64,000 nucleotides of DNA from Escherichia coli (GCF_003018115.1 NZ_CP027457.1); one strand, 5' to 3'. Numbered from the stretch's first letter, positions 5,591 to 7,536 are shown. A program made the numbers and translations. The notes: generated by a model not told the origin, from the sequence alone.

Positions 5591-5749
5591 ACCAGATTGC
5601 CTGCACGTTACACCTGTCAATTCAGTAAGGGTAACGTGCATAGTTTTCTCCATGCAAAGGAATTGCCTGTCCCTTTTGTTAGCAGAAGACGTTGTTGGAT
5701 TATCTCCTTCCATAGAAATCCTCATGATTCAGTGACTGATTTGTTCCAG

Positions 5750-6022
5750 TTATGCTTCACTCAGCCCTGTAATTTTCATGATCATCTGTATGCTAATCCC
5801 TTCAGCCAGTGCCATAATATTACCCTCGTGCTGAGGCAGTAGCAGCGCCAGCGTCTGTAAAAACGTTACCGTCACATGTTCACTGCTGTTCAGCAAATAG
5901 TGAAACAGTTTTTCTGCCTGCTCTTCGCTGAGCGATGTCTGGCTCAACGTCACAACTCTGCCCATCTGTAGCATGATGTCGCGACTCCGGCTGTGTTTCA
6001 TCAACAGCGTCAGAGCTCCCAT
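5750..6022 (-). CDS. Hypothetical 90-aa protein
   Basis: ORF only; no recognised motif. Confidence 0.25.
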   Translation of the reverse strand: MGALTLLMKHSRSRDIMLQMGRVVTLSQTSLSEEQAEKLFHYLLNSSEHVTVTFLQTLALLLPQHEGNIMALAEGISIQMIMKITGLSEA

Positions 6023-6542
6023 ACAACGGTGCTACATTATCTCGTCCTCCTCCTGCAGTGTCATCTCCACAAGGTGGAACGCTCAGGTGTAGAGTTTAGC
6101 AGCAACGTCAGGATTTCTGAAACAGGCCGGCAAGTTCATGCGGTACAGGTACGGACTCCATTCTCCGTGGTAAAACACCGCAGCGTCGACACATCACACA
6201 ACTGATGGTATTCCAGCGGGAGAGGTAAATCGACAATATCCCGGGCTACCTCTGCTGAGACCATAAACGCCCTTAAGACGGCATCATGCGGCGTGGGGGG
6301 ATTTTCTCTTCCCTGCTGCTCACCGTCATCCACTTAACTGTCCTGAATCTACATCAGCGCGCACAGGGACTCCATAAATGCTGCCTGCATATTCCGACAT
6401 GATCGACCACTTGTTCGCATGGAACATCGATCAGTGCTTCGCCAAACTACGATCGATTCAGATACCATTTTGAAGATTAACCGTCCTGAGACACTTATAA
6501 ATACGGAGACGACACACGCGTGTGGTTAATTGACACCACAGT

Positions 6543-6582
6543 GCGAATCAGCGAATCAGCGAATCAGCGAATCAGCGAATCA
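6543..6582. repeat. Octanucleotide tandem repeat (GCGAATCA)x5 plus one degenerate unit
   Basis: Direct reading: gcgaatca repeated 5 times perfectly, followed by gcgatcac. Confidence 0.95.
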
Positions 6583-6728
6583 GCGATCACGGTGCGCTTT
6601 CGCACCGTTGGTAACAACTGCGGACATCCGGTGTCGCACCGTTACACGGTGTAAGTACGAAACACCAGATAAAATGCAGGTTAGTTAGCGATGTCTCTGA
6701 ACGTTCTGAGCAGACCAGGCATTTCGGA

Positions 6729-7070
6729 TTAAGTGCTCGTACCTCCGCAGTCCAGGAACAAGTCTGGCTGGTAGCTGTAAACAGACTTCGTACATACCGC
6801 TCTGCAATAAATCCCCGTACCACAGGCCTCACAGAACTTCTTCCCGGGAAAAAGCCTCCCGCACATCACACAATGCCACTCCAGCACGACCGGTAATGGC
6901 GATAAAAACATCGCCATATCCTCAATGTAAGGGTGGGACGTCTCCGGATTCAGCACCACACAGGCCGCCTTCTGTTGCGCACTCAGGGCATGTAAATCAT
7001 GCTCACAAACCACGCCCCCTGAGCATCTGTCTGCAGAATCAACCGGCCATGACAGGAAAGGCAGAAACAA
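6729..7070 (-). CDS. Hypothetical Cys-rich (zinc-ribbon-like) small protein; start uncertain (TTG at 7070 or internal ATG)
   Basis: C-terminal CVMCGRLFPGKKFCEACG...C..C motif pairs; weak start codon. Confidence 0.3.
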   Translation of the reverse strand: MFLPFLSWPVDSADRCSGGVVCEHDLHALSAQQKAACVVLNPETSHPYIEDMAMFLSPLPVVLEWHCVMCGRLFPGKKFCEACGTGIYCRAVCTKSVYSYQPDLFLDCGGTST

Positions 7071-7152
7071 TGCCGGATATTTCTGCTGAGCGCAGAGTCA
7101 GCAATGATAATGTGCTCACCCGGCGTGATCCCCAGCCCCGTTTTTATACCGT

Positions 7153-7536
7153 TCATTCTGCTACCCCCTCCTCACTGAGGCGCCCGGTCTGGCAGTGTGT
7201 GCAGTACCGCTCCCCATAATAATCGTGGTGACATTGTCTGCAGTACCAGCTGGCTTTACGTACTACGGGTAAGGCATCCGGGACGAATTGCTGCAGACGT
7301 TTAATCAACCGTATTTCTCTGCGTTCCGGCCTGACATAAGGACATTGCTGCGCGTGCTCCGTCAGCCCGTCGTCAGTGTGTTCAAACCAGGGACGTTCAG
7401 TGTCGTATTGCGGGTGGTATCTGAGTGCACTGCCGCAAAGGTGGCAGGTGTAGCTATCGTAAGGTGCAGTCTGTGCGGTACGGGCACCGGTCAGACGTCC
7501 GTTGCCATCAAGTGCGAGAAAAGATTTTGCGTACAT
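7153..7536 (-). CDS. Hypothetical 127-aa Cys-rich (zinc-ribbon-like) protein
   Basis: ATG with GAGGA RBS 8-9 nt upstream; CxxC pairs (CHLC ... CRQC ... CTHC). Confidence 0.5.
   Translation of the reverse strand: MYAKSFLALDGNGRLTGARTAQTAPYDSYTCHLCGSALRYHPQYDTERPWFEHTDDGLTEHAQQCPYVRPERREIRLIKRLQQFVPDALPVVRKASWYCRQCHHDYYGERYCTHCQTGRLSEEGVAE

Follow-up and report, generated by a model that had tools for sequence, protein, structure and literature searches.

The minus strand of an Escherichia coli chromosomal stretch of 64,000 nucleotides (GCF_003018115.1, NZ_CP027457.1; hereafter the window, with positions counted from its first letter) holds at 6729–7536 two adjoining paralogous genes for small, putatively zinc-binding proteins, here called ZnR-A and ZnR-B, the first of which is intact and the second of which is frameshifted. 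Our tentative reading, to which we assign a probability of roughly 0.38, is that the two proteins are paired accessory factors that bind nucleic acid and take part in processing the DNA of their genomic island after induction, alongside a predicted nickase of the HUH superfamily. Under this proposal, ZnR-A and ZnR-B, the latter dead in the window, would be translationally coupled paralogues, each with a C2HC finger like the N-terminal one of CoiA followed by a C4 zinc ribbon, and they would lie at the distal end of the core that is conserved in non-autonomous enterobacterial integrase/AlpA islands of the CP4-57-like kind, in the order AlpA or a family we call X, YagK/YfjJ HUH nickase, leader hairpin, ZnR-A, ZnR-B, and then variable, often defence-related, cargo. 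The processing served may be replication or transfer of the excised element by way of single-stranded or structured DNA. We infer that the proteins bind nucleic acid, that they are functionally connected with the HUH protein, and which process they serve from the near-obligate gene order, the resemblance to the CoiA finger, the co-variation of the pair, and a position in the island backbone rather than in its cargo.

ZnR-A (7153–7536, minus strand) is a real gene under strong purifying selection. Its open reading frame (ORF) of 127 aa is preceded by the Shine-Dalgarno sequence GAGGA, 9 nt 5' of the ATG, and its product carries three CxxC pairs (C31/C34, C99/C102, and C112/C115) plus C65, which bears out a preliminary description of this region that had credited the ORF with a strong ribosome-binding site and several CxxC pairs. 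The same description could name no family for either of its two cysteine-rich ORFs, which was mistaken: in Pfam, ZnR-A matches DUF7828 (PF25165; 5.2e-31, residues 2–87), a CoiA_N-like C2HC zinc finger, and then the C4 zinc ribbon Zn_ribbon_11 (PF11682, formerly DUF3279; 1.1e-7, residues 94–118), and the intact homologue of ZnR-B from strain 2452 matches the same two families at 1.1e-22 and 2e-16. Residues C31, C34, W50, H53, C65, C99, C102, C112, and C115 are invariant across 22 ZnR-A homologues, and the corresponding metal-ligand pattern, CxxC...WFxH...C followed by CxxC-x9-CxxC, is also kept in the ZnR-B halves of 14 pairs; zinc binding by both proteins is accordingly a prediction from these conserved ligands. 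The ratio of nonsynonymous to synonymous substitution rates (dN/dS) of ZnR-A against its orthologues is 0.10–0.15, with synonymous sites saturated between genera (proportion of synonymous differences, pS, 0.71–0.78). ZnR-B is the more variable protein, with a mean pairwise identity of 0.42 against 0.59 for ZnR-A and a proportion of nonsynonymous differences (pN) between genera of about 0.5 against about 0.25.

The ATG of ZnR-B overlaps the ZnR-A stop codon (ATGA, 7153–7156). In its intact form ZnR-B is 141 aa long, and in the window it is a pseudogene (6729–7156, minus strand), delimited by DNA alignment to the strain 2452 gene, from which it differs by a 2-bp insertion (TG, about 7006–7007) within the conserved WFEH motif. 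The insertion splits the gene into a 5' part (ORF 6983–7156) and a 3' part (ORF 6729–7070), both of which match the ZnR profile, and RefSeq likewise labels the gene frameshifted in the closely related strain 2014C-4135. The second cysteine module that had been noticed in the 6729–7070 ORF (CVMCG...CEACG) is therefore present, but the ORF is the 3' part of a frameshifted paralogue and not a gene of its own. Programmed frameshifting was considered and rejected: the change is a plain 2-bp duplication that intact orthologues do not have. With ZnR-B dead, the module in the window is half-decayed, and it may retain only part of its function.

Two small, overlapping, co-transcribed genes on a mobile element invite comparison with a toxin-antitoxin pair that stabilises the island, a possibility that had been raised for this region. 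We reject it as very improbable, since the partners are paralogues that share the same two zinc domains and contain no toxin-like domain, and neither matches a toxin or antitoxin family in Pfam, NCBIfam, or PADLOC. Moreover, loci are common in which one partner has decayed and the other is still intact, the window among them, with no evident cost.

The ZnR family is already catalogued, and its instance in the window is an ordinary one for E. coli. Members carry both Pfam domains in N-to-C order, an architecture that ZnR-A shows in full and from which the window's ZnR-B departs by its frameshift, and homologues appear as 'putative zinc ribbon protein' in RefSeq and as 'Ybl85' in UniProt; literature searches on DUF3279, Zn_ribbon_11, DUF7828, and Ybl85 returned no paper on these proteins, the single one found for Ybl85 being unrelated. 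Homologues fall into 329 clusters at 90% identity, and the family is narrow: of 1.84 billion representative clusters, 243 belong to it. When one genome per species was scanned, 34 loci were obtained, all but three of them by record name from Enterobacterales, in genera that include Escherichia, Salmonella, Citrobacter, Hafnia, Yersinia, Serratia, Budvicia, and Mixta; the three exceptions are two metagenome-assembled genomes labelled Collinsella and Bacillota, which we regard as mis-binned, and an assembly that bears the name Chryseobacterium. Close variants of ZnR-A with its leader occupy 7,511 places, spread over 3,774 of the 5,426 complete E. coli genomes (median 2 per genome). The family is confined to Enterobacterales islands, with no occurrence in 50,697 phage records, 4 in 2.9 million viral contigs, and 33 in 72,556 plasmid records, several of which are chromosome-sized. 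The proteins had no match in scans of NCBIfam, PHROGs, or PADLOC; a sequence profile search of the PDB returned chance-level matches to ribosomal zinc ribbons (E about 0.3), and the best 50 of 95 Foldseek matches in AFDB50 (E ≤ 0.001) were all members of the ZnR family itself. A survey of domain fusions yielded one tandem DUF7828-DUF7828-ribbon protein, the others being frameshift or read-through artefacts. This natural fusion (P0147, 238 aa, from the search of representatives) has two DUF7828 fingers followed by one zinc ribbon and resembles a covalently joined ZnR pair minus one ribbon.

The N-terminal domain of the ZnR proteins resembles in fold the N-terminal zinc finger of CoiA, a competence protein in which such a finger precedes a PD-(D/E)XK endonuclease acting on single-stranded DNA; HMMER found no similarity between ZnR proteins and CoiA families. 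ZnR-A is not a CoiA, as it lacks the nuclease domain (PF06054) and has at that place a C4 zinc ribbon, with which the chain stops at residue 127, and no nuclease family was matched by the ZnR proteins in Pfam at E ≤ 10. The settings differ as well, CoiA belonging to the competence regulon and the ZnR genes to genomic islands of non-competent enterobacteria.

Immediately upstream in the window, at 7907–8500 on the minus strand, lies a gene for a 197-aa protein of YagK/YfjJ type, named 'inovirus-type Gp2' in RefSeq. Across 17 proteins of this type R36/D38, W76/E79, H87xH89, and Y157xxK160 are near-invariant, and R-x-D, W-x-x-E, H-x-H, and Y-x-x-K are the positions of HUH endonuclease motifs I–III, so that by the HUH of motif II and the tyrosine of motif III the window protein belongs to the HUH superfamily and is a predicted nickase. 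Its match to Pfam REP_ORF2-G2P is weak (2e-3), that family being reached at E ≤ 1e-3 by 14 of the 17, and a sequence search found no relative in the PDB. The window protein is of one family with YagK and YfjJ of CP4-6, CP4-57, and related intY/alpA islands and keeps the HUH and YxxK motifs, although the K-12 prototypes lack the ZnR pair. In Pseudomonas, 'inovirus Gp2-like' genes have been listed with intY and alpA as probably belonging to the core of phage-transduced defence islands (PMC12595487). That paper reports no function for the gene, and the papers found on 'inovirus Gp2' give it in island gene tables only.

Synteny was assessed by searching every ORF of the retrieved loci with profiles of ZnR, of two YagK/YfjJ subtypes (G, like the window gene, and K, like K-12 YfjJ and YagK), and of family X. 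Of the 29 species-level loci that include over 1 kb of sequence upstream, 27 have a G- or K-type gene on the same strand that ends 163–1,491 nt before ZnR-A, so the placement of small zinc-ribbon proteins next to a Rep-like gene, remarked on in the preliminary description, is not accidental and recurs well beyond this genome with the HUH and YxxK motifs conserved. A second ZnR paralogue, intact or fragmented, follows ZnR-A in 23 of 34 loci, often with an overlap of a few bases. Frequent further members are AlpA and family X (about 177–197 aa), the latter absent from the window, without a Pfam or NCBIfam match, and often found in the same operon as AlpA, HUH, and ZnR genes (as at L013 6498–7091, L009 9502–10089, and L005 6022–6555). 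Downstream of the ZnR genes the content is variable cargo, often of defence type (McrBC, Dpd genes, and SNF2/AAA/S8-protease/methylase genes). In the window, a scan for terminator-like sites detected none in the interval from the HUH gene to ZnR-A.

Sequence co-variation separates the pair from its upstream neighbour. Over 14 loci the identities of ZnR-A and ZnR-B co-vary (Spearman 0.53, p 6e-8), which together with the lack of any link to HUH subtype indicates that the pair behaves as one cassette, placed behind an HUH gene but tied to no particular subtype; close variants of the window's G-type HUH gene occur in 2,742 places, against 7,511 for ZnR-A. Several observations weigh against an accessory role beside the nickase. 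The HUH protein co-varies with neither ZnR-A nor ZnR-B (rho 0.04 and 0.13, not significant), and nearly identical ZnR pairs stand behind HUH proteins of only about 17% identity (in one example, ZnR-B proteins that are 96% identical stand behind G- and K-type proteins that share about 19%), which argues against a tight, specific physical partnership. The HUH gene also persists without the pair, as neither K-12 yfjJ nor yagK has ZnR genes downstream and yfjJ is followed instead by the AbpAB defence genes. The isoelectric points of five of six ZnR proteins are near-neutral (6.4–7.6; the remaining one, a ZnR-A, is at 9.1), whereas strong DNA binders do not typically have such values, and an AlphaFold2 (AF2) model of linker-fused ZnR-A and ZnR-B, built on 14 paired sequences and giving no interface output, reached a predicted TM-score of 0.40 with no confident assembly. 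To our knowledge, moreover, no function has been established for the CoiA finger on which part of the comparison leans.

The leader of ZnR-A (7537–7600, minus strand) is conserved across loci and contains a potential hairpin, CTGCCC-loop-GGG-A-CGG (7576–7595), with a bulged A and a variable loop, that ends about 35–40 nt before the ATG. The 60–80 nt 5' of the ZnR-A start are conserved in 32 aligned sequences regardless of the upstream subtype and of the spacer (139–1,490 nt), and the leader is 81–89% identical over 79–83 nt between genera at the saturated pS given above. The core pattern CTGCCC-N3-6-GGGACGG occurs once in the window (7577–7594; 0 expected) and, in its exact form, once each in 31 of 50 fetched loci; it stands just upstream of ZnR-A in every aligned locus, and the motif is recognisable in loci across Enterobacterales. 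The core could form a hairpin of 6–7 bp with the bulged A, its loop being variable in length as well as in sequence. Across 27 distinct versions, 152 of the 162 cells that represent the six inner pairs keep the pair, the changes including U-G and G-U wobbles and one double change to A-U, and 17 of the 27 have G-C, U-A, or a wobble as the outermost pair. Rfam, RNAalifold, and shuffle comparisons lend the hairpin no independent support. The leader matched no Rfam family at the gathering threshold or at E ≤ 10, and by eye it fits sigma-70 and sigma-54 promoters poorly. We regard it as a real conserved cis element, which could be an RNA operator, a protein site on DNA, or a nickase target.

A leader of this kind, at a fixed distance from the start codon, with a stem invariant in sequence, one bulged A, and a loop that varies, fits an operator recognised by a protein, and it opens the possibility, which we hold with some reserve, that the ZnR proteins are regulators of the island or of a helper element, acting as an activator or repressor of transcription or controlling translation through their own leader hairpin. 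Such a function would be comparable to that of P2 Ogr and P4 Delta, small zinc-binding activators of the late genes of phage and satellite, Delta being a tandem duplicate that loosely parallels both the ZnR-A/ZnR-B duplication and the fused double-DUF7828 protein. AlpA is in some arrangements the gene directly 5' of the leader, recombination of the ZnR cassette does not depend on HUH subtype, and a near-neutral isoelectric point is compatible with specific rather than general nucleic-acid binding. The likeness to Ogr and Delta stops at size, zinc, and duplication, however: cysteine spacing and fold are different, Ogr_Delta is absent from the ZnR Pfam lists down to E = 10, as are all transcription-factor families, there is no PHROG family match, and Ogr and Delta are encoded by phages and satellites whereas ZnR genes are absent from the phages and recognised P4-type satellites in the collections searched. 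RNAalifold, moreover, returned two pairs and no covarying structure for the leader, most of its single-sequence folds are no more stable than shuffles, and a regulatory role would leave the near-obligate place behind the HUH gene unexplained.

A bolder version of the accessory-factor proposal, which we consider rather doubtful, would make the HUH nickase, the bulged-A hairpin, ZnR-A, and ZnR-B a self-contained and undescribed unit that supplies the missing mobilisation or replication function of integrase/AlpA islands. The CoiA_N-like fingers, without a nuclease, would then recognise nucleic acid that is single-stranded or folded into a hairpin, perhaps that of their own leader, and that recognition would couple the state of the nucleic acid to nicking or to translation. 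These islands are very common in Enterobacterales, and we know of no transfer machinery for them.

The pair borders hotspots of defence cargo (positions of the McrBC, Dpd, and AbpAB type), and the islands also hold antirestriction, DUF932, and other genes of the kind used on entry, which brings in a role in conflict, with or without the HUH gene, either as an anti-defence factor for the island or helper on entry or as a small phage-defence module. ZnR-B evolves fast, as arms-race proteins do, and a nuclease-less copy of the targeting domain of a nuclease could serve as a decoy. We nevertheless think this unlikely, because ZnR-A is highly conserved under strong purifying selection and the module belongs to the backbone and not to the variable cargo. 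No PADLOC-DB v2 family was matched by ZnR-A, ZnR-B, the HUH protein, or a neighbouring 620-aa protein, which leaves a known defence role without support, and an anti-defence role has none here either, though no anti-defence profile library was searched; the lack of a PHROG match, the absence of the family from phages, and the silence of the literature point the same way.

The wider setting agrees with an island. The interval 5400–8700 is 99.9% identical to strain 2014C-4135 and is matched in part by 4,325 of the 5,426 complete E. coli genomes. RefSeq annotates the island of 2014C-4135 with a tyrosine integrase, a DUF3987 protein, a helix-turn-helix regulator, and a 611-aa hypothetical protein, followed by the 'inovirus-type Gp2' protein, two 'putative zinc ribbon protein' genes, three short hypothetical ORFs, a gene with an SdiA-regulated domain, and IS66 and autotransporter fragments. 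The window's ORFs agree with this annotation in size and position, which places its backbone genes as a helix-turn-helix/AlpA-like gene (11733–12038, plus strand), a DUF3987 gene (12010–13539, plus strand), and a tyrosine integrase (13709–14926, minus strand). Between the regulator and DUF3987 genes and the HUH gene, an ORF of 620 aa (9815–11677, minus strand) lies in sequence that is markedly richer in AT than its surroundings (GC 0.35 against about 0.5); its best Pfam match falls short of significance (E 0.08), NCBIfam, PHROG, and PADLOC give none, and it may be horizontally acquired cargo. A hairpin with a perfect 18-bp stem follows it at 9737–9775. Just past the integrase end of the island, at 16465–16658 on the plus strand, is an Rfam match to Ysr251 (Yersinia small RNA 251) of 188 bits, well over the gathering score. 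At the other end, the interval 3773–4689 carries C-terminal pieces of an IS66-family transposase and of an autotransporter (its beta-barrel); these adjoin the SdiA-regulated-domain gene (4760–5590), and together they indicate a mosaic, decaying island edge.

Downstream of ZnR-B and outside the zinc-ribbon module lies a decayed gene of the Rpn family (5801–6306, minus strand), which are PD-(D/E)XK recombination-promoting nucleases. The minus-strand ORFs 5750–6022 and 6136–6333 give weak NCBIfam matches to RpnA/ISNCY, and intact Rpn genes share 81% identity with a portion of the DNA. A tblastn search with an intact Rpn of 322 aa (1e-57 and 5e-18) aligned residues 8–50 to 6306–6178 and residues 125–250 to 6178–5801 in another frame with two in-frame stops, residues 51–124 (about 74 codons, the expected nuclease core) being deleted, so that the remnant lacks full-length homology, PD-(D/E)XK core included, to the Rpn (Transposase_31) family. 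RefSeq annotates the fragments as separate hypothetical proteins. This decay explains the small overlapping ORFs that had been described here as leaving the coding content uncertain; the plus-strand ORF 5597–5842 and the other overlapping ORFs, which show no family match and no conservation, are treated as spurious. In the spacer between the Rpn remnant and ZnR-B, Tandem Repeats Finder identified 5.5 copies of an 8-bp repeat, GCGAATCA (6543–6586). Strain 2014C-4135 has 10.5 copies, 40 bp or 5 units more, and such a difference between near-identical strains marks a variable-number repeat. The 44-aa hypothetical ORF that RefSeq places across the repeat in 2014C-4135 is probably spurious.

Taken against these results, the preliminary observation is partly confirmed and its interpretation partly supported. 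Conservation in homologous islands is strong and speaks for it, whereas the alignment of its second ORF to a frameshifted known gene and of the lower region to a dead Rpn gene speaks against it; the structural reading, of small and presumably zinc-binding proteins, holds as judged from sequence, and a regulatory role is possible. For the region itself the practical outcome is annotation: a single real gene, its frameshifted paralogue, a dead Rpn gene, and a number of ORFs judged spurious. For the family, the ZnR proteins, their fixed place behind the HUH gene, and their conserved leader are common in E. coli, yet we found no paper on them. Islands that carry the ZnR pair are major carriers of anti-phage defence genes, and their replication and movement are poorly understood; should the pair work with the HUH protein, it would offer an experimental handle on both.

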